From: a virus
DNA length: 64,000 nucleotides
IMG/VR virus record: IMGVR_UViG_3300047552_000255
Span: 4,138-68,137 of that record
Reading direction: 5' to 3' (one strand)
Position 1 is the first letter of the stretch. The number at the start of each line of letters is the position of its first letter. Under the pieces are notes generated by a model. That model saw only the letters and a program-made list of their open reading frames with translations. It ran no database searches and was not told the DNA's origin. The position numbers and the translations under genes are program-made. Positions 1 through 64,000 of the stretch are shown here, piece after piece.

Positions 1-452
1 TGGAACCCAAGGTGGGCCCCGACTTCATGCAGGAACACACCGCGCTCTTTGCCCTTGCGGATGCGATCGGCGATCAGAACGGCCTTGCCGTCGCGGGTCC
101 ACGCCACAGCGTCTTGGTCTTCGGCGATCTCTGCGTCGATGCCGTCAAGGTCGAACTCACTGTCCACGATGATGACGCGGCTGCCCAGAGACTTGGCGTT
201 CATGAACCCCAGCAGCGCCTCTTTCAGGGATTCTTCTGTGTGCACGTCCGTGGCGTCGAACATCGCTTCCTTGACGTTGGCCAGCAGTTCTTCCTTCTGC
301 GCCAGCAGGTCCTGTGTTGCTGACAGGTAATCACCTGCAATGTCACCGGTGGAATACTGATCCGCCAGAGCTTCGATCTGCTTGATCTCGGTCGGAGTGA
401 TGCCCATCGCTGCTGAGAAGCAGGCTTTTGTTTTGCCGTTAGACCGTGCCAT
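1..452 (-). CDS. Large ejection/polyvalent protein, allele A (5' part only, runs off the window), with zincin HExxH motif
   Basis: Missing from the ORF track because no stop codon lies in the window. Hand translation from ATG 452 gives MARSNGKTKACFSAAMGITPTEIKQIEALADQY...ERGVFLHEVGAHLGF, which aligns with the N-terminus and HEVGSH motif of 58857..63299. Confidence 0.85.
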   Translation of the reverse strand, partial: MARSNGKTKACFSAAMGITPTEIKQIEALADQYSTGDIAGDYLSATQDLLAQKEELLANVKEAMFDATDVHTEESLKEALLGFMNAKSLGSRVIIVDSEFDLDGIDAEIAEDQDAVAWTRDGKAVLIADRIRKGKERGVFLHEVGAHLGF

Positions 453-720
453 CGAGTATCTCCATCTGGACGAGTGCGGTGATGAACTCAGTTGCTAACA
501 TGTCATCACGTTTGATGCGTAATTGTCGCTGATATTCCCGATTCATCCTATCCACGTAGCCCTTCATATCGGGGGCGGATGATCGGTGCTTCTTGGCAGC
601 GCCAGAGGGCGGCTGCTCTTCTTTCTTCAGTTCGTCCAGCAGACCTTGGACGGCAAGCTGGATCGGCGAGAGCGGGAACCCCGCGCCCTGTAACGCTATG
701 CGGAGTGCATCAAGGCTCAC
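439..720 (-). CDS. Small hypothetical late protein, allele A (93 aa)
   Basis: Overlaps both neighbours. First 28 aa are identical to the copy at 63292..63594, and the C-terminus is homologous but diverged. Confidence 0.8.
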   Translation of the reverse strand: MSLDALRIALQGAGFPLSPIQLAVQGLLDELKKEEQPPSGAAKKHRSSAPDMKGYVDRMNREYQRQLRIKRDDMLATEFITALVQMEILDGTV

Positions 721-1126
721 GATGTCACCGTCGTTGTTGTACCGTCGCTGCTGATAGTCTGGTGCACCGAGCCTGCGTCGCGCGATGTGGCGGTCACTAC
801 CAGAGGCGAGGTCAGTCCGTGCACTGCGGCCAGCGCGTCGATCCAGTCGTCAATGCTGCCAGAGAGGATGTCGCTGGAGACGGTAGTTACCGTTACCGGC
901 CCGGTGCCAGAGATGGTCTGCACCACGTTACCCGCCGCACGCTGTGTCGCCGAGACAGTCAGGGGGTTGCCCGGAACCAGCCCGTGCAGCAGCGCGATCT
1001 CGTAGATCAGGTTCGCCCGTGCTTGGCTGATAGTGATCGTGCCGCCAGTGCCCGACGCGGAGCCAGAGATTGCAGCCAGCGTGACGCCGGGTAGCGAGCC
1101 AGTCGCCAGAGCGGAGCCGGTGGCCG
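635..1126. repeat. Direct repeat copy 1 (492 bp seen; other copy at 63509..64000, offset 62874)
   Basis: Manual alignment shows no indels and 16 substitutions, mostly synonymous. Confidence 0.95.
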
Positions 1127-1808
1127 AGCCAGACGGAGGTGTGAGCGTGACGCCGGGGATTGATACCGTAACCGCACCGGAGCCAGACCCTGTACCAGAC
1201 GGAGTGGTGAGTGTTACACCGGGGATGGAGCCGATGGCCGACGCGGTGCCCGAGGCTGCGCCTGACGGAGTGGTGAGCGTGACCCCGGCAATGGAGCCAG
1301 TGGCGAAGCCATCCGCGCCGCCAGAGGTCCCGCTGGCCGTACCAGTAACTGCCGTGAGGGTTACACCGGGGATGGTGACTGTACCGAGAGCCGTGCCCGT
1401 GGCCGAGCCCGATGGCGTGGTGAGCGTGACACCAGCGATGGTGCCTGTGCCCCGTGCAGTTCCAGATGCAGCGCCAGCAGGGGTGGTAAGCGTGACGCCG
1501 GGGATCGACCCGGTGCCCAGTGCCGTGCCAGACGCTGCACCGGATGGTGTGGTGAGAGTGACCCCAGCGATGGAGCCAGTCGCGTTGCCGTCAACCCCGC
1601 CAGATGTGCCCGTCGCAGAACCAGTGATCGCGGTGAGGGTTACGCCAGCGAGCGACCCGCCACCAAGCGCAGTGCCCGAGGCCGCGCCTGTGGGCGCGGC
1701 GAGGGTTACACCAGCAAGGGAGCCACTGGCGTTGCCGTCTACGCTGCCGCCTGCGTCAATCTGGAACGCATCTTCTTGCCACGCTCCTGATTGAAAGGCC
1801 GTGGTCAT
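717..1808 (-). CDS. Ser/Thr/Gly-rich repetitive virion protein (363 aa)
   Basis: N-terminal AFQ..AFQ motif, ten repeats of about 22 aa centred on GVTL, and a duplicated C-terminal HGL..PL.V.AT.R.AG.V.QTIS unit. Lies in the late operon. Confidence 0.75.
   Translation of the reverse strand: MTTAFQSGAWQEDAFQIDAGGSVDGNASGSLAGVTLAAPTGAASGTALGGGSLAGVTLTAITGSATGTSGGVDGNATGSIAGVTLTTPSGAASGTALGTGSIPGVTLTTPAGAASGTARGTGTIAGVTLTTPSGSATGTALGTVTIPGVTLTAVTGTASGTSGGADGFATGSIAGVTLTTPSGAASGTASAIGSIPGVTLTTPSGTGSGSGAVTVSIPGVTLTPPSGSATGSALATGSLPGVTLAAISGSASGTGGTITISQARANLIYEIALLHGLVPGNPLTVSATQRAAGNVVQTISGTGPVTVTTVSSDILSGSIDDWIDALAAVHGLTSPLVVTATSRDAGSVHQTISSDGTTTTVTS
1060..1740 (-). repeat. Degenerate coding tandem repeat of about 66 bp (10 units, GSI[A/P]GVTLT.PSG.ASG)
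   Basis: Recurring gtgagcgtgacgccggg-type words in the DNA and ten GVTL motifs in the protein. Confidence 0.85.
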
Positions 1809-1810
1809 TC

Positions 1811-2347
1811 CTACCTCTTGGTGAGCGTGACCTGAATGTCAGTCACGGCGTTGTGGTAGTGCTTCACCGCAAACTGTTGGGCCTCTTGCGCGCGCGGAAT
1901 CCAGTCGCCGTCCAGAGCGAAGCCGTAGCCGAAGTCGAAGTCGCACTTCATGTCGTACAGGCCGTGCGTGAGCTTGTTGTCGGTGCGCCACTTCTTGTTG
2001 AAGTACAGGAACGACTCCGCGCAGACCGGTGGCCATGCGTGGGTGAAATCCTGAATGGCGCGGTTGTGTCCAGCGTATGGCACCAGAATCGTGGCGGTCG
2101 CGCCCTTCTTCAGAATGCGGTGCAGTTCGTCCATGAACTTGGGGCGGTCGAGGCCGGGGATGTGCTCGAAGTAGTGCGAGCAGCGCACCTCGTCCACCGA
2201 GTTGTCCTTGAACGGCCAAGGGAACTTCTGCAAGTCCACCACCTTGTCCACGCTGGGTGTCTTCCACTTGTCCACGCCAATGAAGCCATCGGCTTTGTTG
2301 TCGCCGCAGGCCAGATCAAGTTTCACGGGTTTTGCTTTTGTTGCCAT
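1811..2347 (-). CDS. Class I SAM-dependent methyltransferase (type 11-like)
   Basis: Motif I KLDLACGD, followed by WPFKDNSVDEV..SHYFEHI and ELHRILKKG. Start moved to MATKAK. Confidence 0.85.
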   Translation of the reverse strand: MATKAKPVKLDLACGDNKADGFIGVDKWKTPSVDKVVDLQKFPWPFKDNSVDEVRCSHYFEHIPGLDRPKFMDELHRILKKGATATILVPYAGHNRAIQDFTHAWPPVCAESFLYFNKKWRTDNKLTHGLYDMKCDFDFGYGFALDGDWIPRAQEAQQFAVKHYHNAVTDIQVTLTKR

Positions 2348-2348
2348 A

Positions 2349-3083
2349 TCACCAAACCATGTCTGCGGGCCCAAACTTGCCCTCGTAATCGTAGTGGCCC
2401 ACCTTCACCGAGCAGTCAATCGCTGCGCGGTAGCCGTGCTTGAATGCGTCGTTCCAAAAGAAAAGGTCCTGTGTCGCCACGCCTTCAGTGCTGCTGGCCG
2501 ATGTCTTGAACCAAGGCTGGCGCAGCTTCTTGTCCTTGAACATCTCCATGCGCCACAGGTTGAAACCCATGCCTGTGCCGACGCACTCGACCAGCCCACC
2601 ATTGGGATCAGGCGGCAGAGGCTTGAAGTTCATCGGCTCCTTGGGGTTGCCCCAGATTTGCGGCTGCCCGCCATAGCCCTTGGTGTAGTACAGGCCGCCG
2701 ATGCAGGCGTACTCGGGGTGGGCTTCCATGCGCTCAAGCAGTCGCACATGGCCGTCAGGCGGAGGCATGTTGTCGTGCTCCATCGTCAGGATGTACTTGA
2801 ACTTCGACAATTCCGGGTGCTCCAGAATCATCTTGATGGTGTTCGTGTACGCCTCTCCCACTTCCTGCCCCAGCGCCCACAGCGTCACGCGCTTCTGGTT
2901 GGGCGGAGAGAACAGGTTCATGAAGGACGCGGCCACCTTGGTGGGCATCATTCCAAGCGCCGGGATCACGACGATGGTGGACAGGTCTTTGTACGCAGCG
3001 GCCTGCTCCAGCCGCTTGACCGTCATGGCGATATCGCGGTTGTGGAACCCTGTGCCGTCGAATTGAACGAGTTGTGGCTGCAT
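2349..3083 (-). CDS. GT-A fold (GT2-like) glycosyltransferase
   Basis: IVVIPA strand, YILTMEHDN (DxD-like), IGGLYY, GTGMGFNL and QDLFF..A.K.GY...ID..VK.GH, typical of phage GT2-like enzymes. Start at MQPQ, coupled by TGATG to the upstream ORF. Confidence 0.75.
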   Translation of the reverse strand: MQPQLVQFDGTGFHNRDIAMTVKRLEQAAAYKDLSTIVVIPALGMMPTKVAASFMNLFSPPNQKRVTLWALGQEVGEAYTNTIKMILEHPELSKFKYILTMEHDNMPPPDGHVRLLERMEAHPEYACIGGLYYTKGYGGQPQIWGNPKEPMNFKPLPPDPNGGLVECVGTGMGFNLWRMEMFKDKKLRQPWFKTSASSTEGVATQDLFFWNDAFKHGYRAAIDCSVKVGHYDYEGKFGPADMVW

Positions 3084-3235
3084 CAGTCTGTGTGGTTTGG
3101 CACTTCTGTCCAAGGTGTCCACATTCCCTTGAAGCATTGGCGGTACTGGAGGATCATCTTCACGCGCACGCGCCCACGGTGGGGCACTTCCACTTCGGTC
3201 AGCCTGAACTCAATCAGTCCGTCGCGGGTTTCCAT
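3083..3235 (-). CDS. Small hypothetical protein (50 aa), not in the ORF track
   Basis: METRDGLIEFRLTEVEVPHRGRVRVKMILQYRQCFKGMWTPWTEVPNHTD. Fills the gap exactly, with a TAAATG junction upstream and TGATG downstream. Confidence 0.65.
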   Translation of the reverse strand: METRDGLIEFRLTEVEVPHRGRVRVKMILQYRQCFKGMWTPWTEVPNHTD

Positions 3236-3487
3236 TTAGCAGACCCACTCGATGTCGGAGGCAATCAGCACCAGTGGGATGCCCATAGCTGCGATCTGTG
3301 CGTTCACGGACGGCACAAGTTGCTCCTGCACCTGCTGGCGGGCAGAGGTTGCAAGGTTCTGGCTGATGGGCGGGCACACCACAGACATGGTGATATCTTG
3401 TCCAGACTCACTGTCGAGCAAATGCCCCAACACTTCAAATACGCCACCAGTGCCGCCGGCAATGCCCGTGATGAAATACCGTGCCAT
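3236..3487 (-). CDS. Hypothetical late protein (83 aa)
   Basis: AAGGAG RBS and tight operon packing. Confidence 0.7.
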   Translation of the reverse strand: MARYFITGIAGGTGGVFEVLGHLLDSESGQDITMSVVCPPISQNLATSARQQVQEQLVPSVNAQIAAMGIPLVLIASDIEWVC

Positions 3488-3496
3488 GTCTACTCC

Positions 3497-4429: not shown

Positions 4430-4433
4430 CGTC

Positions 4434-4862
4434 TTATCGAGTGATGTACAGCGGTGTGCTGTAGGTGATCGAGAAGTTGCCAGCCGTGCAGGTGATCGTG
4501 CCTGCGAAGTCCACGAACGAGATCAGGTAGTCCGTGCTGGACGTACCGCTGTTCTTGTAGATGATCGCGCCCAGCGCCGAGAACGATGCTGTGGTCCACC
4601 CGTTGGTGATGTTGGTCAGCGTGATCGGCTGGCGGTTGTTTGTCGTGTCGATGGCGTCGAATGTGTACGCCTGCGCGATGCCGCCAGCGGTGTAGCCTGT
4701 GCCAGTAATCTCGTTGGTCACGTCAGCGCGGGAAACCCATGCGTCGATGTTCGCCTCCGACGGTACGCTGGACACCAGCAAAACCTTGAGTGTGTCGCTG
4801 CTGAAGTTGTGTCGTGCCTGCGCCAGATTGCGCGTGAGGTTGGTGAAGTTAACTGAAGCCAT
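4434..4862 (-). CDS. Putative virion structural protein (142 aa)
   Basis: DTLKVLL...TNEI.GTGYTAGG...A..AIIY...L..FVDF pattern of a widespread small phage tail-associated family; AAGGAG RBS. Confidence 0.7.
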   Translation of the reverse strand: MASVNFTNLTRNLAQARHNFSSDTLKVLLVSSVPSEANIDAWVSRADVTNEITGTGYTAGGIAQAYTFDAIDTTNNRQPITLTNITNGWTTASFSALGAIIYKNSGTSSTDYLISFVDFAGTITCTAGNFSITYSTPLYITR

Positions 4863-4872
4863 TGGTTACTCC

Positions 4873-5226: not shown

Positions 5227-5240
5227 GTTAGTGCGTTAGT

Positions 5241-8654: not shown

Positions 8655-8662
8655 GTTAAGCC

Positions 8663-50294: not shown

Positions 50295-50588
50295 ATGCCA
50301 TCGTCACCGGGTTACAAACGAGACTACAAACAGGAATGGTCTTCCGCCAAGAAGCGCGGCGAGGACACTGACAACGCGATGCGCCACCGCGCTCGCTACA
50401 AGCTGGAGAAGGAAGGCAAGGTCAAGCCCAACGACGGCAAAGACGTAGGCCACCTGACCGCTGTGAAGCGCGGAGGAACCAACTCCGACAGCAACTTGCA
50501 GGTTCAGAGTGCTGCTGCCAACCGCAGCTTCGCTCGCAACAAGGACGGCTCCATGAAGTCTGAGACGTCCAAGAAGGAACGCAAATGA
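50295..50588 (+). CDS. HNH-like small protein (degenerate active site)
   Basis: RDYK.E...R..AR......G.V...DGKDV.H....GG.N...NL.V.S...NRSF.R. Confidence 0.7.
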   Translation: MPSSPGYKRDYKQEWSSAKKRGEDTDNAMRHRARYKLEKEGKVKPNDGKDVGHLTAVKRGGTNSDSNLQVQSAAANRSFARNKDGSMKSETSKKERK

Positions 50589-50842
50589 CCAAGACCGAGA
50601 TCGCGCTGCTGGCGGTGTACCGCATGCCCGCCGTGCGGCTTGATGACATCTGCGAGAAGTACCTGAACATGACACCGAGGCACGCCAACGAGCGTGCGGC
50701 CATGAACATGCTGGGCATCCCGACGTTCCGCATTGGGGTGTCGCGCAAGGCCCCGCGCATGGTGCACATCGAGGACTTGGCGCGGTTCATCGACGCCAGT
50801 GCAGCCACTGCAAAGCAGGACTGGGAAACTTCGCAGGTGTGA
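50585..50842 (+). CDS. PrtN-family (pyocin activator-like) protein, probable excisionase
   Basis: T...LLA.Y..P.V.L..IC..Y......P.FR...S.KAP..VH..DLA.FID; next to attP and int. Confidence 0.8.
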   Translation: MTKTEIALLAVYRMPAVRLDDICEKYLNMTPRHANERAAMNMLGIPTFRIGVSRKAPRMVHIEDLARFIDASAATAKQDWETSQV

Positions 50843-50884
50843 CACCAGTGCGCCAACACGGCGCTAGCCCGCATTAAACTTAAC

Positions 50885-50915
50885 AATCCGTCCAATCCAT
50901 CATCGGGGCAACACT
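50885..50915 (-). other. attP core matching the 5' end of dusA (tRNA-dihydrouridine synthase A)
   Basis: Minus strand GTTGCCCCGATGATGGATTGGACGGAT encodes VAPMMDWTD, the conserved DusA N-terminal motif. Lies between the prtN-like gene and int. Confidence 0.85.
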
Positions 50916-51010
50916 TACACGATGTAAGTCTGAAATGGATGTTTCACGAGGTGTTCCACGGTCAGTTGGCTTACACATTGTTAGTTTTAATCCGGTATAT
51001 TGCGCTATAC

Positions 51011-51061
51011 TTTGTGACGGTAATTGTGACGATCCCAACTTGTCACACCGCTTGTCACACA
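51011..51061. promoter_or_regulatory. Putative integrase arm-type sites
   Basis: TTGTGACG x2 then TTGTCACAC x2 (inverted relation); related GTGTGACAC at about 50837. Confidence 0.6.
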
Positions 51062-51071
51062 GGAGAACCAC

Positions 51072-52130
51072 ATGGCAGTAATACGAGAAAGAGCAGGCAA
51101 CTATCAGGCCATCGTCCGGGTCAAAGTGGACGGCCACCTGTACAAGGAAGCCCGCACGTTCCGCACGGAGCGACTCGCCAAGGACTGGGCCAGCCGACTG
51201 GAAGCTGACCTCAAGGTCAATGGCGTTGCGCAACGCGTGAAGGGTAACACCACACTGGGCAGCTTGCTCTTGATGTACCTCGAAGCGCTCAACGCAGTCA
51301 AGCCGGTGCGCCGTCAGATGTCATGGGAAATCAACCGCCTTGCAGAGGAGTTCAAAGATGACAAACTCACATCCATATCTTCCAAGCGACTGGTCAACTT
51401 CGGGGTCAAGCGAGCCCAAGCCGGAGCCGCAGGAGCCACAGTCCTCCACGACCTCGCAACAGTACGAGCGTGCCTCGGCGCAGCAAAACCAATGTTCGGA
51501 ATCGCTGTTAATGCAGAGAGCGCAGAAGCTGCAATTGCAGCTCTACAACGCGTTGGAGCAGCCGCTCGAAGTAAGAGCCGCGAAAGACGCCCAACAAGCG
51601 AAGAACTGCTGGCCCTACACCGAGAGTTCGAGCGCATATCATCCCACCCCAGCACCCGCATCCCGATGGCAACGATTCTCAAAGTGGCTATCGCGTTTCC
51701 GCGCAGGCTGGGCGAGCTGATGGACATGCGCTGGGAGGACTTCACTGGCGACCAGATCATCCTGCGAGACACCAAGCACCCGGTGGCCCCGCGCACGGAG
51801 ACAGTACCAGTGCCTGAAGACGCTGCCTCAATTTTTGAGTCACTGCCCAAGATCGACGAGCGCATGCTGCCGTACAACCCGGAGTCGGTGAGCGCGTCGT
51901 TCGAGCGGGCATGCAAGCGGCTGAGCATCGAGGACTTGCGGTTTCATGATCTGCGCCACGAAGGCATCACCCGGCTGTTCGACGCGGGGCTGAGCATTCA
52001 GGAAGTCTCCATGATCTCCGGGCACAAGAGCTGGGGCATGCTCAAGCGTTACACGCACCTTGCCCCCAAGGCCATAGCTGATAAGCTGCGCGGCACGTCG
52101 CGGCTCAACGAATGGAGGGACACCCTCTAA
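51072..52130 (+). CDS. int: Tyrosine recombinase/integrase (dusA-associated type)
   Basis: R..YQA.VR N-terminus; catalytic R (PRRLGE), K (DTKHP), H..RH (FHDLRHEG), GH..W..LKRYT; AGGAG RBS. Confidence 0.92.
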   Translation: MAVIRERAGNYQAIVRVKVDGHLYKEARTFRTERLAKDWASRLEADLKVNGVAQRVKGNTTLGSLLLMYLEALNAVKPVRRQMSWEINRLAEEFKDDKLTSISSKRLVNFGVKRAQAGAAGATVLHDLATVRACLGAAKPMFGIAVNAESAEAAIAALQRVGAAARSKSRERRPTSEELLALHREFERISSHPSTRIPMATILKVAIAFPRRLGELMDMRWEDFTGDQIILRDTKHPVAPRTETVPVPEDAASIFESLPKIDERMLPYNPESVSASFERACKRLSIEDLRFHDLRHEGITRLFDAGLSIQEVSMISGHKSWGMLKRYTHLAPKAIADKLRGTSRLNEWRDTL

Positions 52131-53680
52131 TGCTAGTCATCAAGGAACACAAGAAGCTGCTGCTCAACCTCAACGACCCGGACAGGGTGACCACCGTCAT
52201 CCCCACAGCCAAGGCGGTCGAGGTCAAGGGGCACACACTGGTGTCGGTTCCCCACCGCATGGAGGAGGTGCGCGTGCTGCGCAACATGGGGTTCGACGCC
52301 CCGGCTCCGATGGGCAGCTACTACGACTGGCCGGGCATGTACAAGCCGTTCATCCATCAGAAGGTGACGGCGGAGTTTCTGACCATGAACCCCAAGTCGT
52401 TCTGCCTCAACGGCATGGGCAGCGGCAAGACCATGAGCGTGCTCTGGGCGTTCGACTACCTGAAGAAACTCGGGATGGTCAACCGCATGCTGGTGCTGGG
52501 CCCGCTGTCCACACTGGAGCGCACATGGGGCGACGAGATATTCAAGCACTTCCCCGAGCTGACATTCACCGTGCTGCACGGGACACGCGAGAAGCGGCAC
52601 AAGCTGCTGGCTAACGACTTCGACATCTACATCATCAACCACGACGGCATCAAGTCCAAGGAGACGGTGCAGTTGCTGCGCGAGCGCGAAGGACTCGACG
52701 TGATCTGCGTGGACGAGGTGGCGAGTTTCCGCAACGCATCGACCGACCGCTGGAAGTCGCTGTGGGCCATCTGCAAGGACAAGGACTGGGTCTGGGGCCT
52801 TACCGGCACGCCGACCCCCAACGCACCAACCGACGCATGGGCGCAAGTCAGGCTGATCTCCCCGACCCGAGTGCCCAAGTATTTCGGCGTGTTCCGCGAG
52901 CAGGTCATGCGCCCGCTATCCAAGTTCAAGTGGACCCCCCGCGAGGGATCGCTGGAAGTGGTACGGCAGGCCATGCAGCCGTCGGTGCGGTTCTCCCGTG
53001 AGGAGTGCATCGACTTGCCGCCGACAACGCTCATGACCCGGCAGACGGAGCTGACGCCAGAGCAGCGCACTGCGTACTACCAGATGCTGACCAAGATGAA
53101 GGTGGACTTCGCTGACGGGCAGGTGACTGCTGTGAACGAAGCGGCGAAGCTGACCAAACTCTTACAGATTGTCTGCGGTACGGCGTACACACAGGACGGC
53201 GAGGTGAGCATCCCCAGCCAGCACCGCATCAATCTGGTCAAGGAGATCATCGAAGAAGCCGGGGCCAAGGTCATCGTGTTCGTTCCCTTCACCGGGGCGC
53301 TCAACGCGGTGGCCGAGGAGATCGCCAAGGACTTCAGCGTGGAGCTGATCCACGGCGGTGTTAGCAAGACCGAGCGTGACCGCATCTTCGGAGCGTTCCA
53401 GAAGACCAAGGAGCCGAGGGTGTTAGTCGCCAACGCTGCGGCCATGAGCCACGGGCTGACACTCACGGCGGCTAACACGATAGTATGGTTCGCACCCATC
53501 AACTCGCTGGAGATTTACGAGCAGGCCAACGCCCGCATCGTGCGCCCCGGCCAGAAAATGAACACCCTGATCGTCAACATCGAAGGCTCCGACTTGGAGC
53601 GCAAGATGTACGCCCGGCTCCAGCACAAGGGCAAGATGCAGGGACTGCTGCTGGAACTTCTGAAAGGAGAAAGTGAGTGA
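52130..53680 (+). CDS. SNF2-family (SF2) helicase
   Basis: GMGSGKT, VDEVA, LTGTP.PN, HGLTLTAA and EQANARI.RPGQ; TAATG-coupled to int. Confidence 0.92.
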   Translation: MLVIKEHKKLLLNLNDPDRVTTVIPTAKAVEVKGHTLVSVPHRMEEVRVLRNMGFDAPAPMGSYYDWPGMYKPFIHQKVTAEFLTMNPKSFCLNGMGSGKTMSVLWAFDYLKKLGMVNRMLVLGPLSTLERTWGDEIFKHFPELTFTVLHGTREKRHKLLANDFDIYIINHDGIKSKETVQLLREREGLDVICVDEVASFRNASTDRWKSLWAICKDKDWVWGLTGTPTPNAPTDAWAQVRLISPTRVPKYFGVFREQVMRPLSKFKWTPREGSLEVVRQAMQPSVRFSREECIDLPPTTLMTRQTELTPEQRTAYYQMLTKMKVDFADGQVTAVNEAAKLTKLLQIVCGTAYTQDGEVSIPSQHRINLVKEIIEEAGAKVIVFVPFTGALNAVAEEIAKDFSVELIHGGVSKTERDRIFGAFQKTKEPRVLVANAAAMSHGLTLTAANTIVWFAPINSLEIYEQANARIVRPGQKMNTLIVNIEGSDLERKMYARLQHKGKMQGLLLELLKGESE

Positions 53681-54154: not shown

Positions 54155-54182
54155 CATCATCGCCCCAACTAAAGGAAACCAA

Positions 54183-55384: not shown

Positions 55385-55396
55385 CCCCCGATACGT

Positions 55397-55434: not shown

Positions 55435-55453
55435 CCCACTCAGGAGTTTCCAG

Positions 55454-55738: not shown

Positions 55739-55759
55739 TTTTTTCTTGTCGGGGGACAG

Positions 55760-58700
55760 ATGCTAGATACATTCTTCGGGGACGTGCTCCCCGCCACAGG
55801 CTTCTTTGCTCTGTGGGACAAAACAACAAAGCAACACCAGTGGTTCGGCTCACAAGACGAGCTGCTGCAACACACCCAAGCCGCCATCGACGGGCAGGTT
55901 CAGGGCATGTATTTCGCCACCGCCGGGTTCGCAGAACAGGCCGCAATCAACGGCAACAAGGACGCCCGTACACAGGCCAACGTCACAGCGAAAAAGTGCT
56001 TCTATCTGGACTTGGACGCAGGCGAAAAGAAGTTCGCAAAACATGGCGCAGAGAAGGTCTACGAGACGCAGAAGGACGCCATCCGTGGCGCGGTGGAGTT
56101 CATCAAGACAACCGGTCTGGCTCCGACCTACCTGATCTCCAGCGGCGAAGGCCTGCACCTGTACTGGGCACTGGAAGAAGCCATCGAGCCGCACCTGTGG
56201 ACCCCCATAGCACGTCGCCTGTCCAAGGTGTTCCGCCAGCACGGTCTGAAGGAAGACCCGGCGGTCACGTCCGATAGCGCCCGCATTCTTCGCCCGATTG
56301 GCACAGTGCACGAAAACGGAAGCGAAGTTAAGCCTCTCCTGAATCGCGGCAGGCTGTACGATTTTGACACGTTTTCCAGCTTGGTGACTAACCTGTTAGT
56401 TGATGAAGACGAAGATGTTTTCGATGCGCCGACAAAGAAGTACGACACGTCCATCAACAGCGACGTGGTCGTCGAAGGCCCACCCAAGTCACTCAAGAAG
56501 ATCATCCCGCAGTGCGCCGCAATGAAGGAAGCTGCGCGGGTCAAGGGCAACGTGGAAGAGCCGTACTGGCGTGCCATGCTGGGCGTGGTCAAGTACACCG
56601 TCGAGGGTGACGAGTGGGCCCACTTTCTGAGCAGCGGCCACCCCGACTACAGCAAGCGCGACACGCAGTTCAAGCTGGACAACTGGAAGACCGGCCCAAC
56701 CACATGCGCTGAGTTCGCCAAGCGTTGCAGCCACTGCGCCGGGTGCGAGCACAAAGGCAAGATCAAGTCGCCTATATCACTCGGGGTTATGAACAACCGC
56801 GAAGTTGAGGCACTTCCAGAAGAAAAGAAACCAGAGGCGGCCAAGCCCCCTGCCCCAACCGGCGCACCGTGGGACGAGTCCATACCTGCTGGCTTCTCTG
56901 TAAAGAGCAGCGGCGACACGCACACCCTGATCTACAACATGCCCGTGGAGTCCAAGGACGAAGACGGCGAGGCGATCACGATCTACGTCAAGGTGCCGTT
57001 CACACACGACATCTTCTGGTTCGGTAGCTGGTCGGACGCCGCCCACACTGACGACTCTGCGCAGGTGTTCCTGCACAAGTGGAACAAGCGGGAAGTGCAG
57101 ACCTACACGCTGGATCAGACCCTACTGGCGAATCAGCAAAAGTTCCGCGAGTTTCTCGCTGGCAAGTCCATCCACACCACATCCCACAAACACGCCCCCA
57201 AGGCGCTTGAGGAGTACGCAAAAATGCAGATCGCATCCGTCAAGGCTCTGCGCGACATGCCCAAGATCAACCGCCGCTTCGGCATGTTCATCGACAGCAA
57301 TGGGCGCATCAGCGCCGCGCACGGCGACAACGTCATCACCCATTCGGGTGAGATTCACAAGGCCATCCTCTCGCACGACCTGCGTGAGACCGCCAAGGCA
57401 CTGGAGATCAACCTGCCGACCACGACCGAAGCGAAGTACGACGCGGACGTCTGGGACGCAGACCTGTACCCCAAGGCGCAGCGGTATGTGGAGTTCATGA
57501 AGAAGTATTACGGCGACGAGCGGCTGGTGAAGTTCCAGCTTGCCGCCATGCTTGGTCTGGCCTCGCCCCTGATGCCCTTCGTGACCGGTGAATACGTGAG
57601 CGGTGAGACCCTGCCCCCATGCGGCCTGTCGGTGTCCCTGTACTCGCAGGATTCCGGCAAGGGTAAGTCGCATGTGATGAAGGCTGTTGCGCTGGCGTAC
57701 GGCAAGCCCTCCGCGCTGTCTGGTGACGGTAATGCAGACACGGCGACCAACGTGTATCGCTTGGTGAAGCTGGGCCAGATGGGCAACTATCCGGCGTTCT
57801 TCGACGAGATGGGCAGCACTCCTGCCAACGACATCGCTGCGCTGGTCAGCGCCATTGCCAACGGCCAGAGCCGTGGACGCGGCACCAAGGAAGGTGGCCT
57901 GCGTGAGGGTGTGCGCTTCGCGCTCGTGGCTCTCATGGCTACCAACAAGAGCGCCCGTGAACTGGTGACCGAGTCCTCCAACGTGAGCAACGCCATCCAG
58001 CTCCGCCTGTTCGAGCTGAACGTGGACGACATCCAAGAGTTCGACAACGACCTCAAGAAGCAATACTCCGCAGACTGGGCAGATGTGCAGTCTTGCGCTG
58101 GAGCCTTCGGTGCTGTCATCGAGCGCACCCTGTGCAAATACAGTGCAGCGGATGTGAATAAGCTGGTGACAACCTACGTCAACCGGGCAAGCGAGCTGAC
58201 CGATGCCAAGCAGGCAGAGCGGTTCCAGTACCGTGGGCTTGGTGCGCTGCTGGCGCTCAACGCGATCCTCAAGTCGCTGAACCTTGTGATGTTCGATGTC
58301 AACGCGCTGATCGAGGCGTTCCGTCAGGCCAACGCACTGGGGCTGGCATACGTGGTGGAGAACACCATGCCGACCGAGGGCACCCACCTGCTGAGCATGG
58401 CGCTGCACGACCTGACGGCCAACACTGCGGTGACACTGAACGAGACACGCCGCTCACGCTATGTGACTGCATACGATGAGCCTCTGGTTCCGGTGCCGCA
58501 CGTTGTGCATGCCCGCCATGTGGTGAGCCACCGGGTGACCTACGTTTCCAGCGACGCACTGCGCGACTGGTGCCAGAAGCACAAGGTATCGTTCAGCAAG
58601 ATGATGCACGACGCACGCCACTCTGGCGTACTCAACCCGGTCTACCCCGGTCGCAAGGTGCCGTCTGCTTCGTTCAACCTGCTCAAGGGAATGCGCGGCA

Positions 58701-58867
58701 GCACTGAGGCGATGGTGACCTGCTACTGCGTCAACGTGCTCAAGCTGGCACAGGTGACCGGCGAGACGGTTGAATACGATGGCGTGCCCACTGACAACGT
58801 GGTGCACCTGAACCAGCCGGAGCCGCAGCAGCCCCCCGAGGGAGGCGATGCTGCCGTCAACCAGTAA
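55760..58867 (+). CDS. Primase-helicase (AEP/RepB-like primase + Zn finger + DUF927-like ATPase)
   Basis: FYLDLD, SSG.GLHLYW, D.ARILR..GT, TC......C..C.H, Walker A SGKGKS and FFDE. Confidence 0.88.
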   Translation: MLDTFFGDVLPATGFFALWDKTTKQHQWFGSQDELLQHTQAAIDGQVQGMYFATAGFAEQAAINGNKDARTQANVTAKKCFYLDLDAGEKKFAKHGAEKVYETQKDAIRGAVEFIKTTGLAPTYLISSGEGLHLYWALEEAIEPHLWTPIARRLSKVFRQHGLKEDPAVTSDSARILRPIGTVHENGSEVKPLLNRGRLYDFDTFSSLVTNLLVDEDEDVFDAPTKKYDTSINSDVVVEGPPKSLKKIIPQCAAMKEAARVKGNVEEPYWRAMLGVVKYTVEGDEWAHFLSSGHPDYSKRDTQFKLDNWKTGPTTCAEFAKRCSHCAGCEHKGKIKSPISLGVMNNREVEALPEEKKPEAAKPPAPTGAPWDESIPAGFSVKSSGDTHTLIYNMPVESKDEDGEAITIYVKVPFTHDIFWFGSWSDAAHTDDSAQVFLHKWNKREVQTYTLDQTLLANQQKFREFLAGKSIHTTSHKHAPKALEEYAKMQIASVKALRDMPKINRRFGMFIDSNGRISAAHGDNVITHSGEIHKAILSHDLRETAKALEINLPTTTEAKYDADVWDADLYPKAQRYVEFMKKYYGDERLVKFQLAAMLGLASPLMPFVTGEYVSGETLPPCGLSVSLYSQDSGKGKSHVMKAVALAYGKPSALSGDGNADTATNVYRLVKLGQMGNYPAFFDEMGSTPANDIAALVSAIANGQSRGRGTKEGGLREGVRFALVALMATNKSARELVTESSNVSNAIQLRLFELNVDDIQEFDNDLKKQYSADWADVQSCAGAFGAVIERTLCKYSAADVNKLVTTYVNRASELTDAKQAERFQYRGLGALLALNAILKSLNLVMFDVNALIEAFRQANALGLAYVVENTMPTEGTHLLSMALHDLTANTAVTLNETRRSRYVTAYDEPLVPVPHVVHARHVVSHRVTYVSSDALRDWCQKHKVSFSKMMHDARHSGVLNPVYPGRKVPSASFNLLKGMRGSTEAMVTCYCVNVLKLAQVTGETVEYDGVPTDNVVHLNQPEPQQPPEGGDAAVNQ

Positions 58868-61800
58868 CACCTGCGGCCTTCTGCAACTTCTGTTCGCGCT
58901 TGGCTTGAGTCTGAGGATACTTGAGCAGCGTGGACAGGGGTTGTACCTTGAGGGCGTCGGTGCTGTCGTTGAACAGGTAGCGCAGTCGGTTCTTGCCTGA
59001 CTGCAAGTCCATCCAATCCTGACGTAGCTGGGTCAGGCTGTCTTGGTCTTTGTCCTCAACTGCACGGGCGTAGTCACGCTGGATTTCCTTCGTGCGGTCT
59101 TGGTAGAACTGCCCGATCTCGTACTGCTGGCTGCGCAGCCAGTCCATGCGCTTCATCTCTGAACTCGGCATGCCGAGTGCGTCCAGCGCCAGAGCGAACC
59201 CGTTGACGTCTTCGGGCTTGAACATGAGGTCGCCGTTCTTGAGCGTGAAGCCTTCGTTGGCAATCCGAAACGCCTTCATGGCATCAGCCGCGCCCTTGGG
59301 CATGAACTTCTCAACGCCCTTGTAGTATTCGCCCCGCTGGAGCATTCCCACGCCGTCGGCGAACTTGCCACCCAGACCAGCGGCAGGCCCGGCCAGACTC
59401 ATGCCAGTCTTTGCAAGACCCGATGCGCTTGAGAAGTCCCACTCGCCGTACGGCAGGATGCTGAAAATCTTGTCGTCGCCCAGCTTGGCCGACATGTCCA
59501 GACCGGCAGCAGAGAGCGGCCCGTGCAGCAGCATGTTTGCCATCGTCTCGTCGCCGATCAGCTCGCGCAAGCTGCGCTCCAAATCTGGCGGTTCCTCGTC
59601 ACCACCCAGAGCGCCGAAGATCATGGACACGAGGTTCATGAGCGGCAGGCCCAGAGCGCCAGCGGCGATGCCGGTGTGCGCCATCTTGTATGCCAGCATG
59701 CGCCGACCGATGGCACGCTCCTTGGGGTCTGAACTGCGGAACGCTTGCTGGAACGCCTTGGCGTACAGAGCGGCCATCATGAACTGGTACTTCTTGTACT
59801 GTGTCACGATCTTGGGCAGCTTCTTGAGCAGGAGCGGGGAGCCCACGCGGGAGAAGTCACCCTGAGTGGATTGCAGCATGCGCAGTGCGTACTGCTGTGC
59901 TTGCTCCTCTGACCTGCCCTTGGCGATTGCCATGTTGTACGCAGCGGTTGCCGACGACACACGGTTCACGATTTCAACGCCCCGCGCCACTTGGTTGAGC
60001 TTGTGCAGCGCACTGCGAGCTAGCTTGGTGGACTTGTCGATGCCGCCGATGCCGGTGCGGGTAGCCTCGAAGTGCGACATGTCTTCGTTCATACCGACGT
60101 CCAGCACGCCCATGTCCATCGCCAGTTGCAGCGCCTTCTTCAGGCCGGGGCTCTGAATCTTGTTGATGTCGAACTTGTTGCCGATGCCAGCGCGGCCAAC
60201 CATGCGGTAGCCGTCGATCAGGTGCCGCCATGCGCCGGAGTAGTCGCCGAAGTCTGCTGCCAGCTTGGGCAGCGACACCATGATGCCCTGCGTGAAGTTG
60301 GTAACGTGGTAGCCGACGCTGGTAGCGAGCTGCCATGCGCTGGTGCCAGCCATCAGCCGGTCTTGGATCGGCGTCTCTTTGTAGTGCAGCATGTCAGCGT
60401 AGTGCTCGGCTACGGTGTTCACTGCGTCCTGATGCTCACGCTCGCCCAACGAGTTGCGGGCTTGCCCCTGCATCTTCTGGAACGCTTCGCTGATCGTGGC
60501 TCCATGCTCCACGTTGGCAAGGAAGCTGCTCTCTGCACGGGAGTGCGCGAGGAACGAGCGCATCATGTCAGTGTCGTAACCGGCGCGGTTCAAGCGGCGC
60601 AGGCCTGACATCCGGGCGTTGTGCTCGTCTACATATTGCAGCATCATGTCGTTGATCATCTTGACAGCGGCGCTGCGCTCGGAGGACTCCATGTCAGGGT
60701 TGATCTTCATGGCTGCGAGGATGTCCTGCACCACCTTGTACGGCACGGGCTGGTCTTCCTTGATGCGGGCCGAGCCCTCGAAGTCGTCGGTGAAGTCGAA
60801 CCGGCCACCGTTGGCCTTGTTGTTTGCCCACGCGAACTGCCGAGCCTGACCCTTGGTGTCGAACTTGGACATCACGTAGTGCGTCGGGTCGGCCTTGAGT
60901 TTCTCGACGAGCTTGTCGTCTTTCGCTTCTTCGGCGTCGCGCAGCTCCTTGGACTTGAGCACTGCGACGTAGTCACCGAAACGCTTGAGCGGGGCGTAGG
61001 GCCCGTCGATCTTGGCGTACCCCGAGAAAATCTTGTCGGCCCCCAACTTCTTGAGTAGGGCGTCGCGCACCTTGCGCATCTTCTCGCCGTGGGCAAACAC
61101 CTCGCGGACCACTGCTTGCTCTTTGTCCGTCAGTTGGTCGTACATGCTCTTGAGCACCGGGTCCACCGTGACGTCTGTCTTGAACGTCGGCGTGTAGCCC
61201 CACTTCTGCTCGTACGTCGAGCGCGAGATGAAGTCGTTGATCTTCTGGGTTCCGCCGGGCAGCTTGTCTGCCATGTGGGCGATCTCCTCGGCTTCGCGCT
61301 CGTAGCGGGTGCGCTGCGCCACGACGTCCTGCACGGACTTGTACCACTCGCCGATGGCGGGCACGGTGTTCTTGTACCGGTCAACGATGTCGTGCAGGCC
61401 GAGCATGGACAGGCCCAGCTTCTTCACGAAATGCGAAGCACTCTCAGCTAGGATGGCCGAGCTTGCACCGCCGACACGCCGGGCGGCATCGCTCACAGGC
61501 GCAGAGATGGAGAACTGCATCGGGCGCATCGCGTCGATCTGAGCCTTGGATGCCGTGGGCATGGTCTCGGTGAGCGTAGCCCAGTTGCCCTTGCTGTCCT
61601 TCTTGAACGCTTCCAGAGCACGATCTGATAGAATGCCCTTGGACGTGGGGGTCTGCACGTTAGGGGCCCCGTCACCGGGGTTGATGGCAATTGACGCCGT
61701 ACTCTGTAAATCGTGTAGCCGACCCATGTCCGCCTTACGCATGTAGAGCACTCGCCCATCGCGCAGCGCAGTCGCCACCACTTGAGCAGACTCTTCCCCG

Positions 61801-63299
61801 CCGAACAGAGTCTTGACCTCAGTGATCTTGAACTCCCCGGTCTTGCCCTTGGTCATCGCCATGAACAGCGGGTTCCCCGCCTTGTCCCGCGAGTCCAGAA
61901 TCATCACGACGCTGTTGTTTGTCTGGATCACTGCGCGGGGTCGGGTGAGGAGGTCGCCCAGAGCACCGATGTCACTGACCGTGATCTCGGGGTGCTTGTT
62001 GAAGATGTGGCGCACGTTGCCGTAGTCCATCACCACCGGGCTGTAAAAACCCAGCATCCGCATCACGGGCGGGGTCACCTGCGCGATACCGGCCATCGCT
62101 GGCGCGTTGCGGTTTTCCTTGGCGAGCTTGGCCCACTGCGCCACGCTCTGGTTCTGCTTGGCCGGGACAGATGTTGGGGGCAGGCCCAGCTCTGAGAACT
62201 TGGGCACCGCGTCACGCGGGTTGCGCTCCTTGTCTCCAGCCGAGCGGTTGTCGATCATCGCCTGTGCGGCGCGACCGTAGGCCATGTTGACCAAGTCCTG
62301 TGCGGTGATCGTGTCGATGTCACCAACGAAGCGGGCGATGGCCTTCTTGGCAAAGTCCATGACCTTGGCGAACCAGTTGCCCAGCTTGGTGTTCTTCTTC
62401 ATCTCCGCTTCCGGGTTCACCCCGGCGCGGACGGCTTCTTCAATAAAGTACGCAACCAGCTCGGACTGCTGCTGGCCCGGCGCAACGCTGGCGTTGCTGA
62501 CCCGGCGCATGGCGGCTTGGGCGATCTTGTTTTCCTGCGTCCCGCTGGTCTCCTGCGCCCACTCCACGATCTTGAACGCCAGAGCCCGGTGCTCTTCGTC
62601 AGTCAGGTCGCCTTCAAGGCCGACGTGTGAGCCAACCTCGTGCATGAAGATGGCACGCTCTTCGCCGGGCTTGATGAAGTCCGAGAACAGGTAAGCCTTG
62701 CCGCCCCACACCAGACCCTGCGCGTTGCCCTTCTTGCCCTTGCGTTCGGCTTCGTACTGCTTGCGCACATCGGCAGGCAGCTCACTGGGGTTAGCCAGAA
62801 CTTGCAGCAAGTCGGACTTGATCGGCAGGAACTTGAAGACGGCCTTCTTGACTGCCTCGACCGTGTTGCCGGAGGGGCCAGCGGATTCGCTGCGGGACTC
62901 TTGTCCTTGGGTTGTTTCGTAGAACGCTCCGATGGTGGCACCGGCAGCGACCTTCTTCTGGTCTTTGGGGGCGTACGCCAGCCAGCTTTTTCCAGTCGAG
63001 TCGAAACCTTGAGCGTCAAATTCACGGGCCACACCATCCCCTCCGACCACTTGCTGGGCCCCTTTTGCGGGGTCGAATGCGGTAGGAGCGGCGCTGGCTG
63101 TCTTGGCCTTCTCGACCATCGCCTTGTAGATGGCGTCGCGCAACTGCTTGGCCTCGGCGATCATGTCCTGCGCGGCAGCGGCGTAGTCCGCGTTGGGGTT
63201 CGTCGAGTTGTACTTTTCGGCCAGCAGCTCCAAGCGCTCAATGTCCTTGGGTTTGAGGTCAGCTTTGGCAAAGCATGGCGAGTTCGAGCGTTTAGCCAT
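58857..63299 (-). CDS. Giant ejection/polyvalent protein, allele B (1480 aa): zincin HExxH + PBECR-like RNase-fold domain + helical body
   Basis: ERAIFMHEVGSHVG...SELVAYF.E; NVRHIFNKHPEI....L..LL..P..V.......V..L...D..G.P......I..VKT.F; Y.PL.RFGDY; convergent with the primase gene. Confidence 0.8.
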   Translation of the reverse strand: MAKRSNSPCFAKADLKPKDIERLELLAEKYNSTNPNADYAAAAQDMIAEAKQLRDAIYKAMVEKAKTASAAPTAFDPAKGAQQVVGGDGVAREFDAQGFDSTGKSWLAYAPKDQKKVAAGATIGAFYETTQGQESRSESAGPSGNTVEAVKKAVFKFLPIKSDLLQVLANPSELPADVRKQYEAERKGKKGNAQGLVWGGKAYLFSDFIKPGEERAIFMHEVGSHVGLEGDLTDEEHRALAFKIVEWAQETSGTQENKIAQAAMRRVSNASVAPGQQQSELVAYFIEEAVRAGVNPEAEMKKNTKLGNWFAKVMDFAKKAIARFVGDIDTITAQDLVNMAYGRAAQAMIDNRSAGDKERNPRDAVPKFSELGLPPTSVPAKQNQSVAQWAKLAKENRNAPAMAGIAQVTPPVMRMLGFYSPVVMDYGNVRHIFNKHPEITVSDIGALGDLLTRPRAVIQTNNSVVMILDSRDKAGNPLFMAMTKGKTGEFKITEVKTLFGGEESAQVVATALRDGRVLYMRKADMGRLHDLQSTASIAINPGDGAPNVQTPTSKGILSDRALEAFKKDSKGNWATLTETMPTASKAQIDAMRPMQFSISAPVSDAARRVGGASSAILAESASHFVKKLGLSMLGLHDIVDRYKNTVPAIGEWYKSVQDVVAQRTRYEREAEEIAHMADKLPGGTQKINDFISRSTYEQKWGYTPTFKTDVTVDPVLKSMYDQLTDKEQAVVREVFAHGEKMRKVRDALLKKLGADKIFSGYAKIDGPYAPLKRFGDYVAVLKSKELRDAEEAKDDKLVEKLKADPTHYVMSKFDTKGQARQFAWANNKANGGRFDFTDDFEGSARIKEDQPVPYKVVQDILAAMKINPDMESSERSAAVKMINDMMLQYVDEHNARMSGLRRLNRAGYDTDMMRSFLAHSRAESSFLANVEHGATISEAFQKMQGQARNSLGEREHQDAVNTVAEHYADMLHYKETPIQDRLMAGTSAWQLATSVGYHVTNFTQGIMVSLPKLAADFGDYSGAWRHLIDGYRMVGRAGIGNKFDINKIQSPGLKKALQLAMDMGVLDVGMNEDMSHFEATRTGIGGIDKSTKLARSALHKLNQVARGVEIVNRVSSATAAYNMAIAKGRSEEQAQQYALRMLQSTQGDFSRVGSPLLLKKLPKIVTQYKKYQFMMAALYAKAFQQAFRSSDPKERAIGRRMLAYKMAHTGIAAGALGLPLMNLVSMIFGALGGDEEPPDLERSLRELIGDETMANMLLHGPLSAAGLDMSAKLGDDKIFSILPYGEWDFSSASGLAKTGMSLAGPAAGLGGKFADGVGMLQRGEYYKGVEKFMPKGAADAMKAFRIANEGFTLKNGDLMFKPEDVNGFALALDALGMPSSEMKRMDWLRSQQYEIGQFYQDRTKEIQRDYARAVEDKDQDSLTQLRQDWMDLQSGKNRLRYLFNDSTDALKVQPLSTLLKYPQTQAKREQKLQKAAGVTG

Positions 63300-63594
63300 C
63301 GAGCAGCTCCGTATTTAGCAGGGCCATGATGAACTCCACGGCGTCCTGATCGTCTTGATGTAAGCGTGTTAGATTGTATTCGGCCTGCGCCCTGCGGTCA
63401 CGGGCTTCTTGCTGGCGCTTGAGGTTCTCGGACAGGTAGTCCCGCTGCGGGTGTTTGCCAGCCCGGCCAGCGTCGAGCATCGCCTGATACGCCCCGGAGC
63501 GCAGCTCCTCCAGCAGACCTTGGACGGCAAGCTGGATCGGCGAGAGCGGGAACCCCGCGCCCTGTAACGCTATGCGGAGTGCATCAAGGCTCAC
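63292..63594 (-). CDS. Small hypothetical late protein, allele B (100 aa)
   Basis: Start equivalent to position 720; identical N-terminus to 439..720 and a divergent C-terminal part. Confidence 0.8.
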   Translation of the reverse strand: MSLDALRIALQGAGFPLSPIQLAVQGLLEELRSGAYQAMLDAGRAGKHPQRDYLSENLKRQQEARDRRAQAEYNLTRLHQDDQDAVEFIMALLNTELLDG

Positions 63595-64000
63595 GATGTC
63601 ACCGTCGTTGTTGTACCGTCGCTGCTGATAGTCTGGTGCACCGAGCCTGCGTCGCGCGATGTGGCGGTCACCACCAGAGGCGAGGTCAGCCCGTGCACTG
63701 CGGCCAGTGCGTCGATCCATGTGTCCACGCTGCCAGACAGGATGTCGCTCGATACCGTCGTGACCGTTACCGGCCCGGTGCCAGAGATGGTCTGCACCAC
63801 GTTACCCGCCGCACGCTGTGTCGCCGAGACAGTCAGGGGGTTACCCGGAACCAGCCCGTGCAGCAGCGCGATTTCGTAGATCAGGTTCGCCCGTGCTTGG
63901 CTGATAGTGATCGTGCCGCCAGTGCCCGACGCGGAGCCAGAGATTGCAGCCAGCGTGACGCCGGGTAGCGAGCCAGTCGCCAGAGCGGAGCCGGTGGCCG
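63509..64000. repeat. Direct repeat copy 2
   Basis: Matches 635..1126. Confidence 0.95.
63591..64000 (-). CDS. 3' end of a second copy of the Ser/Thr-rich repeat protein (partial)
   Basis: Near-identical to 717..1126; protein differs only as SIDDW vs SVDTW. Confidence 0.9.
   Translation of the reverse strand, partial: ATGSALATGSLPGVTLAAISGSASGTGGTITISQARANLIYEIALLHGLVPGNPLTVSATQRAAGNVVQTISGTGPVTVTTVSSDILSGSVDTWIDALAAVHGLTSPLVVTATSRDAGSVHQTISSDGTTTTVTS

Follow-up and report, generated by a model that had tools for sequence, protein, structure and literature searches.

An apparent genome restart in a 68-kb freshwater phage contig, probably an assembly path through two sister phages

Comparable systems

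Over-length or wrap-around contigs arise in the assembly of circular or circularly permuted phage genomes, when these are entered via the side branch of a related strain. The record analysed here, a single contig of 68,137 bp from a freshwater metagenome, resembles such contigs in that its period equals one genome, that it ends one k-mer into sequence already used, and that its leading extra DNA appears to stem from a second genotype. It differs from them in that the overlap is non-identical (18 differences in 499 bp), and in that the side branch would be no close strain variant but a sister phage that is clearly distinct and has a different integrase. I refer to the two presumed phages as A and B, and to contig positions 4138-68137 (64,000 nucleotides) as the window, whose numbering is used below unless stated otherwise. 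Tandem double lysogens, that is, polylysogeny at one attachment site, show a unit A, an attP-like junction and a unit B in one stretch. These need a single integrase specificity and equal copy numbers, whereas here the integrases are unrelated and the depths differ.

Polyvalent proteins of phages and conjugative elements are described by Iyer et al. (2017, PMC5512222) as giant multidomain proteins with a zincin-like HExxH motif and variable inner domains, encoded among virion genes. Both alleles A and B agree with this description, being large and multidomain with HExxH and polyvalent-associated domains (LPD39 in A) and encoded with virion genes. Compared with the single gene of 2821-2872 aa in relatives they are short forms (1386 and 1480 aa), and their injection and processing are putative. 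Integrases, islands and prophages associated with dusA bring a replacement 5' end for this gene, by a mechanism set out in Farrugia et al. (2015, PMC4482086); as in those elements, a replacement dusA 5' end is found here beside a tyrosine integrase gene, with the site in its un-integrated attP state. A giant virion protein of the 'DarB-like' type also occurs in podophages with genomes near 60 kb (Pseudomonas phage Skulduggery, Agrobacterium phage Atu_ph08, Erwinia phage PEp14 and Sinorhizobium phage PBC5). These resemble the present unit in genome size and share the C-terminal half of the giant protein, 26-29% identical across roughly half of allele A, and Rhizobium phage RHph_TM3_14A is linked by its portal (37% identical). 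All are distant relatives only; megablast of window positions 1-20000 and 44000-64000 against 50,697 phage records gave no match.

The 62,874-bp repeat and its surroundings

Comparison of the contig with itself (blastn) yields one long repeat, a gapless direct repeat of 499 bp with 96.4% identity and a period of 62,874 bp (window 628-1126 versus 63502-64000, contig 4765-5263 versus 67639-68137), and a repeat search matched 628-927 with 63502-63801 at the same spacing. The sequence-only reading had described a genome that restarts as a different allele, with 16 substitutions and no indels between 635-1126 and 63509-64000, 11 of them in 846-888 and nearly all synonymous. Exact counting agrees, with 18 differences over the full repeat, and only 2 of 136 codons in the 3' end of the fibre-like gene are altered (I/V and D/T). 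A simple exact circular overlap is ruled out, as that reading had also held, since the two copies are not identical and the left one lies inside the contig, starting at contig position 4765 and not at position 1; entry from a second genotype would account for such an overlap, in agreement with the depth data given below. The last difference between the copies is at 63873, exactly 127 bases from the contig end at 64000, and 127 is what I take to be a common largest k-mer length of assemblers. One period holds a complete genome, with the terminase, portal, major head protein, DNA polymerase, SNF2 and primase genes each present once, and the true unit is likely 62,874 bp.

The features on which the argument depends are as follows.

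1..452, minus strand: 5' part of polyvalent allele A (N-terminal 150 aa); the gene as a whole (1386 aa, P0001) spans contig 429-4589, with 3.7 kb upstream of the window
439..720, minus strand: small gene, allele A, 93 aa, with a GTG start (720) overlapping the fibre-like gene's stop; the first 28 codons equal those of allele B
628..1126: repeat copy 1, with the letters of the phage A variant at 798-999
717..1808, minus strand: gene of a 363-aa fibre-like repeat protein, containing a 66-nt tandem array (1060-1728); it comes first in the block that would be common to both phages
50585..50842, plus strand: small DNA-binding protein of the PrtN family (PF11112, E 1.5e-17), candidate excisionase
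50843..51071: intact attP-type region carrying the element's own dusA 5' end
51072..52130, plus strand: tyrosine integrase of phage B (PF00589, E 9e-16; PHROG 1, integrase)
52112..53680, plus strand: SNF2-family helicase, by profile matches
55760..58867, plus strand: DUF927-type primase/helicase, which ends the series of early genes and converges on polyvalent allele B
58857..63299, minus strand: polyvalent allele B, 1480 aa (P0002)
63292..63594, minus strand: small gene, allele B, 100 aa when counted from the GTG (63594) homologous to the allele A start
63502..64000: repeat copy 2, phage B variant, ending with the contig

The polyvalent genes close the block of virion genes on the minus strand. 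That they are diverged homologues, as proposed earlier, is confirmed by alignment (27% identity over 820 aa, 34% over the zincin region). Allele A begins MARSN..CF and has HEVGAH near residue 141, allele B begins MAKRSN..CF and has HEVGSH near residue 219, and the extra length of B ahead of the zincin motif, put at about 80 aa before, was measured as about 78 aa; LHEVGxH is conserved across an alignment of 13 sequences (A2). In allele A an LPD39 domain (E 4e-16, 59.6 bits), a C-terminal PLxRFG 'tail-700' domain (417.7 bits) and a match to the DarB-like PHROG 10089 were found, besides an ART-PolyVal match below the Pfam cut-off; allele B has a PLxRFG domain (229.8 bits) and a MuF_C match that is near the threshold, though below the Pfam cut-off. 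With both alleles, phmmer gave 0 matches among PDB sequences at E up to 0.1.

The small genes share 28 identical codons, after which the identity stops abruptly, again as first noticed, and they are 50% identical overall. Both copies keep the gene order and the junction of small gene and polyvalent gene, GCCATCGAG (CTCGATGGC on the minus strand). No Pfam family matched small gene A, and the fibre-like protein gave just a weak CAP_GLY match in Pfam, without an assigned stretch, and no PHROG match.

The attP-like site that had been placed near 50900 is borne out by a minus-strand mini-frame at 50880-50978, which reads MCKPTDRGTPRETSISDLHRVSVAPMMDWTDC and ends in ...VAPMMDWTDC before a stop, 93 bp upstream of the integrase start; this motif I take to be the N-terminus of DusA. 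The integrase at 51072 itself has only general Phage_integrase and PHROG 1 matches. To the left of allele A lies not a primase but the C-terminal end of a second integrase (L001 3-380), which aligns with the first over 37 aa at 30% identity and is unrelated to it; its full-length relatives have P4-type arm-binding and central domains, and a 57-base exact pattern taken from it matched nothing in metagenome contigs. The upstream flank (4,137 bp) consists of this integrase gene end and allele A, with no host DNA, dusA gene or second terminase, and no host DNA was found within the whole 68 kb.

Depth in the source sample, related loci and competing explanations

Runs X1 and X2 are from one sample and X3 is from another study; the fraction of sampled words of the allele A locus that was present is 0.98, 0.95 and 0.13, respectively. 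Contigs of these runs were compared with window 44001-64000, their depths being contig means from another assembler and thus a rough test, and the contigs showing neither read pairs nor single molecules. An independent contig of 18,057 bp spans 45482-63538 without a difference, at depth 58.9 in X1 and 49 in X2, and as it runs unbroken across the attP, the DNA on both sides of 50900 is of one genotype. The stretch 63509-63671, shared by both phages, has depth 78.3 in X1, where a 151-bp contig, which differs at 14 letters and at each of them agrees with copy A, has depth 23.4, a value given by this one contig in this one run, the variant being absent from the contigs listed for X2. Contigs of 4,146 bp (X1, depth 75.7) and 4,400 bp (X2, depth 61) lead into the shared DNA and extend 3,908 bases past 64000, which would correspond to window 1127-5034. 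In both X1 and X2 a loose end at 63502 equals window 598-627, i.e. small gene A. Both junctions, that of A and that of B, are therefore seen in independent contigs of the source sample, at unequal depth. X3 holds B-type pieces, with 35 of 42 matched pieces at least 99% alike and a 323-bp piece that spans the breakpoint of B without a difference. The longest run records with a piece on window 44001-64000 have 56,558, 51,020 and 65,971 bases, and are absent from the listed pieces.

The relatives compared are 80 IMG/VR loci and L082, the one useful locus of three found by scanning genome contigs, a phage-like contig of 62.7 kb in a MAG labelled Geobacteraceae, for which binning is weak evidence of the host. 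SNF2, Gam-like, p316 and primase genes converge on a polyvalent gene in 30 of the 80 loci. The dusA-like integrase is found upstream of SNF2 in L002, L006 and L024. In L007, L009, L023 and L082 the P4-like integrase lies between primase and polyvalent gene, and L005 retains a remnant. Both layouts were never found in one locus among the 80 and L082, and they are alternatives in related phages. Allele A has its best relatives in L007 and L082 (56%), both of the A layout, and allele B in L002 (57%), of the B layout; a related-locus search with allele A alone found no relative among viral contigs or metagenome contigs. The contigs of the relatives measure 55-67 kb, e.g. 62,745 bp in L082, which matches the 62,874-bp unit, and those of about 60 kb have one polyvalent gene per locus.

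The apparent restart is, I believe with good confidence, the result of a metagenome assembler that entered the 62.9-kb circular map of phage B from the rarer sister phage A, via the stretch shared by both. The contig is most likely a 'stick plus loop' walk of the assembly graph through a mixed phage population rather than a single physical molecule, and the real part of the observation is most likely the co-existence of two related phages only. A strain-chimeric assembly had been listed among the alternatives of the sequence-only reading, and is now favoured by the unequal depths, both junctions in independent contigs and the 127-base end distance. Two related temperate, podovirus-like phages would share one freshwater sample. 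Phage B, the more abundant, would have a 62,874-bp circular map, with its dusA-type attP and integrase gene ahead of SNF2 and with allele B beside the primase; in phage A, the less abundant, the P4-like integrase would directly adjoin allele A. The walk would start in phage A at the integrase end, pass allele A and small gene A and traverse the shared block on A's variant letters, then complete one lap of the phage B circle past allele B and small gene B, re-enter the shared block on B's variant letters and halt one k-mer (127 bases) beyond the last difference. The assembler probably behaved in this manner, and window 1127-45481 would then belong to B or to both phages.

Alternatively, the contig could represent two related prophages placed next to each other or in tandem on the same bacterial chromosome, with the attP-like site at about 50900 as their junction, 1-50900 being phage A and 50900-64000 phage B, but this is improbable. 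The repeated order of integrase gene parts and polyvalent alleles, two of each, would agree with it, a tandem junction would likewise show an intact attP, and A-B tandem lysogens mixed with free phage B would yield identical depth sums. However, the integrases are unrelated and so would not use one common attachment site, and the depth of the A variant in X1 lies well below that of B, not at the 1:1 that one molecule predicts. The SNF2, Gam-like, p316 and primase genes occur once, as do those for the DNA polymerase, terminase, portal and capsid, and the 18-kb contig passes 50900 unbroken, which argues against the proposed division of the window. In A-type relatives the integrase adjoins the polyvalent gene and is not located between exonuclease and SNF2, so that phage A has no reason to open at 50900. 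Of the second int/terL set and the attL/attR that were to be looked for in the flanks, the 4,137-bp flank has just the end of an unrelated integrase, with no host gene, and the two layouts were not found together in any locus of the relatives.

Slightly less probable still are mixed concatemers or recombinant A-B heterodimers formed on co-infection, where a minority of real molecules would carry A and then B. Both phages are in one sample and have a common block able to recombine, but no observation requires such molecules, and the contig end fits the graph walk. A real duplication inside one phage genome of more than 68 kb with two polyvalent genes, also listed before, has both copies in one deposited contig in its favour, but is the least credible of all, as the two variants differ in depth, each locus of the relatives of about 60 kb has a single polyvalent gene, the contig stops 127 bases beyond the last difference, and a single duplication cannot explain proteins 27-34% identical next to 499 bp of 96% identity.

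The shared block and its meaning

With the graph walk through phages A and B as the preferred reading, the near-identical block shared by both is best explained, within that same well-favoured account, as starting in the small gene at codon 28 and extending into the fibre-like and transferase genes, with a right-hand limit probably at about window 5034. Of the proposal that the ejection protein is exchanged as a cassette at a defined breakpoint, one part stands, since a single sharp breakpoint exists at codon 28. The other part does not: beyond the other flank of the polyvalent gene the neighbours differ (integrase versus primase) and homology does not resume, and with alleles that track their own backbones, a cassette swap of the polyvalent gene alone is ruled out. 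For these reasons the shared fibre block, and not the polyvalent gene, looks like the exchanged piece. Candidate contents are the fibre-like repeat protein, a methyltransferase and a glycosyltransferase; tblastn of these, of the small gene and of the 310-, 142- and 117-aa genes gave a match in none of the 80 related loci. At the site of this block, relatives carry one giant, unbroken polyvalent gene, and the block may therefore be a mobile insert that split it. It is a tentative suggestion, with somewhat less than an even chance, that two temperate phages from one freshwater community, clearly different from each other, very recently swapped a host-surface block of at least 0.5 kb, probably about 4.4 kb, with one crossover at codon 28 of the small gene, and that this block may be such an insert.

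The finding serves mainly as a caution: the record is most likely not one genome, and its 68.1 kb, two integrases and two polyvalent genes should not be counted as properties of a single phage. The underlying biology is best read as ordinary phage mosaicism between two co-occurring sister phages, which carry a near-identical fibre/glycosylation block beside very different polyvalent proteins, predicted to be injected. The pair of phages A and B would be a convenient natural test of which module sets the host range, and which counters host defence.

The repeat and the unit it delimits

The record consists of one contig of 68,137 bp, and the window spans its bases 4138-68137. In a blastn comparison of the whole contig with itself, the only long self-repeat pairs contig 4765-5263 with 67639-68137 (window 628-1126 and 63502-64000, copies A and B). 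The copies are 499 bp long, gap-free and 96.4% identical, with a period of 62,874. By exact count they show 18 differences, 16 of them in 635-1126, and these 18 change 2 of 136 codons at the 3' end of a fibre-like gene. Identity is lost abruptly inside a small minus-strand gene, the first 28 codons of which are the same in A and B before the two diverge, leaving 50% identity overall. Between the adjoining polyvalent alleles A and B, identity is 27% across 820 C-terminal residues and 34% in the zincin region, and HEVGAH (A) and HEVGSH (B) stand about 78 residues apart in register. The sequence-only reading had described this repeat and its alleles, and all elements of that description were borne out: coordinates, substitution counts, the breakpoint at codon 28 and the diverged alleles.

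Eleven of the 16 differences are packed into 43 bp (846-888), the flanking DNA being otherwise identical, a cluster that suggests a short gene-conversion tract derived from a third, more distant homologue rather than even divergence.

The 62,874-bp unit is a complete podovirus-like temperate phage, and each replication and virion gene is present once only in the contig.

Main features of the contig (window coordinates except where marked)
contig 429-4589, minus: polyvalent allele A, 1386 aa
23388-24410, minus: major head protein
29494-31884, minus: portal
31691-33124, minus: terminase large subunit
minus-strand block: tail and fibre proteins, internal virion proteins
46119-48026, plus: DNA polymerase
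48933-49607, plus: exonuclease
50585-50842, plus: PrtN-family protein
between the PrtN-family gene and the tyrosine integrase: 229-bp gap
51072-52130, plus: tyrosine integrase
after the integrase, plus: SNF2 helicase, then Gam-like protein, then 316-aa protein
55760-58867, plus: DUF927-type primase, converging on allele B
58857-63299, minus: polyvalent allele B, 1480 aa

Both alleles carry the conserved C-terminal PLxRFG domain (417.7 bits in A and 229.8 bits in B, at a cut-off of 100 bits) and match the 'DarB-like' PHROG 10089. Allele A also matches LPD39 and, below threshold, ART-PolyVal, and allele B matches MuF_C slightly below the cut-off. They fit the polyvalent proteins as characterized by Iyer et al. 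2017 (PMC5512222).

Within the 363-aa fibre-like gene, a 66-nt unit encoding 22 Thr/Ser/Gly/Pro-rich amino acids occurs seven times at 1060-1728, spaced at either 66 or 147; on the right, the contig breaks off shortly after this array has begun.

Junctions and depths in independent assemblies

Sampled words of the allele A locus (contig 1-6000) were found at fractions of 0.98 and 0.95 in two runs, X1 and X2, of a single freshwater metagenome sample, possibly the source, and at 0.13 in a sediment run from another study, X3. I compared independently assembled contigs from X1, X2 and X3 with window 44001-64000. One 18,057-bp contig of X1 (depth 58.9) equals 45482-63538 with zero differences and spans the DNA polymerase, attP, integrase, SNF2, primase, allele B and small gene B; the same contig is present in X2 at depth 49. 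In both of these runs a contig enters the shared DNA at 63502 from sequence equal to window 598-627, in small gene A, and in X3, where 35 of 42 pieces are at least 99% alike, one 323-bp piece crosses the B breakpoint without difference. As run contigs span the A and the B breakpoints, both junctions are real, the B junction in another study too.

The depths are additive (about 59 + about 20 = about 77), not equal. The shared stretch 63509-63671 stands at 78.3 in X1, and a 151-bp contig at 63642-63792 stands at 23.4 and carries 14 other letters, which on checking against the copies are those of copy A. A 4,146-bp contig (depth 75.7) covers 63763-64000 and extends 3,908 bases beyond the contig end; in X2, a 4,400-bp contig (depth 61) covers 63509-64000 with the same extension.

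On the reading I prefer, the assembler probably entered from phage A, crossed a block common to both phages and then went once round the 62,874-bp circular map of phage B, halting on re-entry. The copies differ for the last time at 999 (63873 in copy B), and the contig end at 64000 is exactly 127 bases on, just the distance at which a k-mer graph walk stops after the last word with a variant letter has been used; k = 127 is a common largest k-mer setting.

Contigs of X1 and X2 also diverge from B at 61248 and 52622-52623 into unlike sequence, and 25 of 45 X1 pieces have 90-95% likeness; these loose ends and pieces show further relatives or alleles (polyvalent gene, SNF2) in the sample. Separately, 44155-44646 is a variable spot among the early genes in the population, where several X1 and X2 contigs skip 49-404 bases and depth runs from 50 to 131.

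Two integrases and two backbones

The 229-bp gap holds a minus-strand mini-frame reading ...VAPMMDWTDC and then a stop, a motif that I take to be the DusA N-terminus. According to PMC4482086, elements with dusA-associated integrases carry a replacement 5' end of dusA, which the mini-frame fits. The dusA site near 50900 has the form of an un-integrated attP.

Upstream of the window, 4,137 bp of contig complete allele A and also encode, on the plus strand, the last 125 aa of a second tyrosine integrase. This left-flank gene is not a primase. Its alignment with the 51072 integrase covers no more than 37 aa (30% identity), and the two are unrelated; in a full-length member of the left-flank type, arm-binding and central domains of the P4 kind are present. 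The sequence-only reading had proposed looking in the flanks for a second integrase and terminase and for attL/attR beside host dusA, and this flank yields the unrelated integrase fragment and no host gene, dusA or second terminase. Because only 48 bp (contig 381-428) separate the stops of the left integrase and allele A, and 1 bp in the related locus L007, integrases of this type would have to use an attachment site that is either upstream of their gene or overlapping with the gene's end.

A profile of allele A homologues (93 proteins found, 13 aligned) picked up 192 IMG/VR relatives; 80 of these were retained, representing 79 distinct loci, and an allele B search added 1 locus. A further useful locus, L082, lies on a contig of 62,745 bp that had been assigned to a MAG. 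By tblastn of 26 window proteins against 80 IMG/VR loci, exonuclease, SNF2, Gam-like protein, 316-aa protein and a primase converging on the polyvalent gene keep the same order in 30 of the 80. The 51072-integrase homologue lies directly upstream of SNF2 in L002, L006 and L024 (B layout), and a left-flank integrase homologue lies between primase and polyvalent gene in L007, L009, L023 and L082, with a remnant in L005 (A layout); in L004 a distant (34%) homologue of the 51072-type integrase adjoins the polyvalent gene. None of the related loci inspected has both layouts. The best relatives of allele A are L007 and L082 (56%, A layout), and that of allele B is L002 (57%, B layout). From the alternative layouts, and from best relatives with the matching layout, it follows that two different backbones have contributed pieces to the contig, and each polyvalent allele goes with its own backbone.

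There is a small probability that a minority of molecules link A and B, or that tandem lysogens occur mixed with free phage B. Tandem prophages at dusA with a junction near 50900, as first preferred from the sequence, are disfavoured, since the two integrases are unrelated, the contig has no host DNA, replication and virion genes are each in single copy, the 18,057-bp contig crosses 50900 unbroken, the A and B depths are unequal, and the phage A layout leaves no attachment site between exonuclease and SNF2.

The shared block and a possibly split giant gene

The sister phages have at least 499 bp in common. As the summed-depth contigs, one in X1 and one in X2, each terminate 3,908 bases beyond 64000, the shared block probably measures about 4.4 kb and reaches about window 5034, a limit inferred from contig ends. 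By tblastn, the block genes have homologues in 0 of the 80 related loci. In the relatives L082 (5468-13933) and L002 (5522-14140), homologues of p366 and p572 are followed immediately by a single giant polyvalent gene (2821 and 2872 aa). At that position, window 439-8654 has instead a 1137-aa protein, nine small genes in a block of roughly 4.8 kb (fibre-like, methyltransferase and glycosyltransferase genes among them) and the 1386- or 1480-aa allele. The N-terminus of the 1137-aa protein matches the N-termini of giant relatives (P0012, 53%; P0045, 44%), and the block may have split the giant polyvalent gene. All this is ordinary mosaicism and, as a side observation, deserves a separate look.
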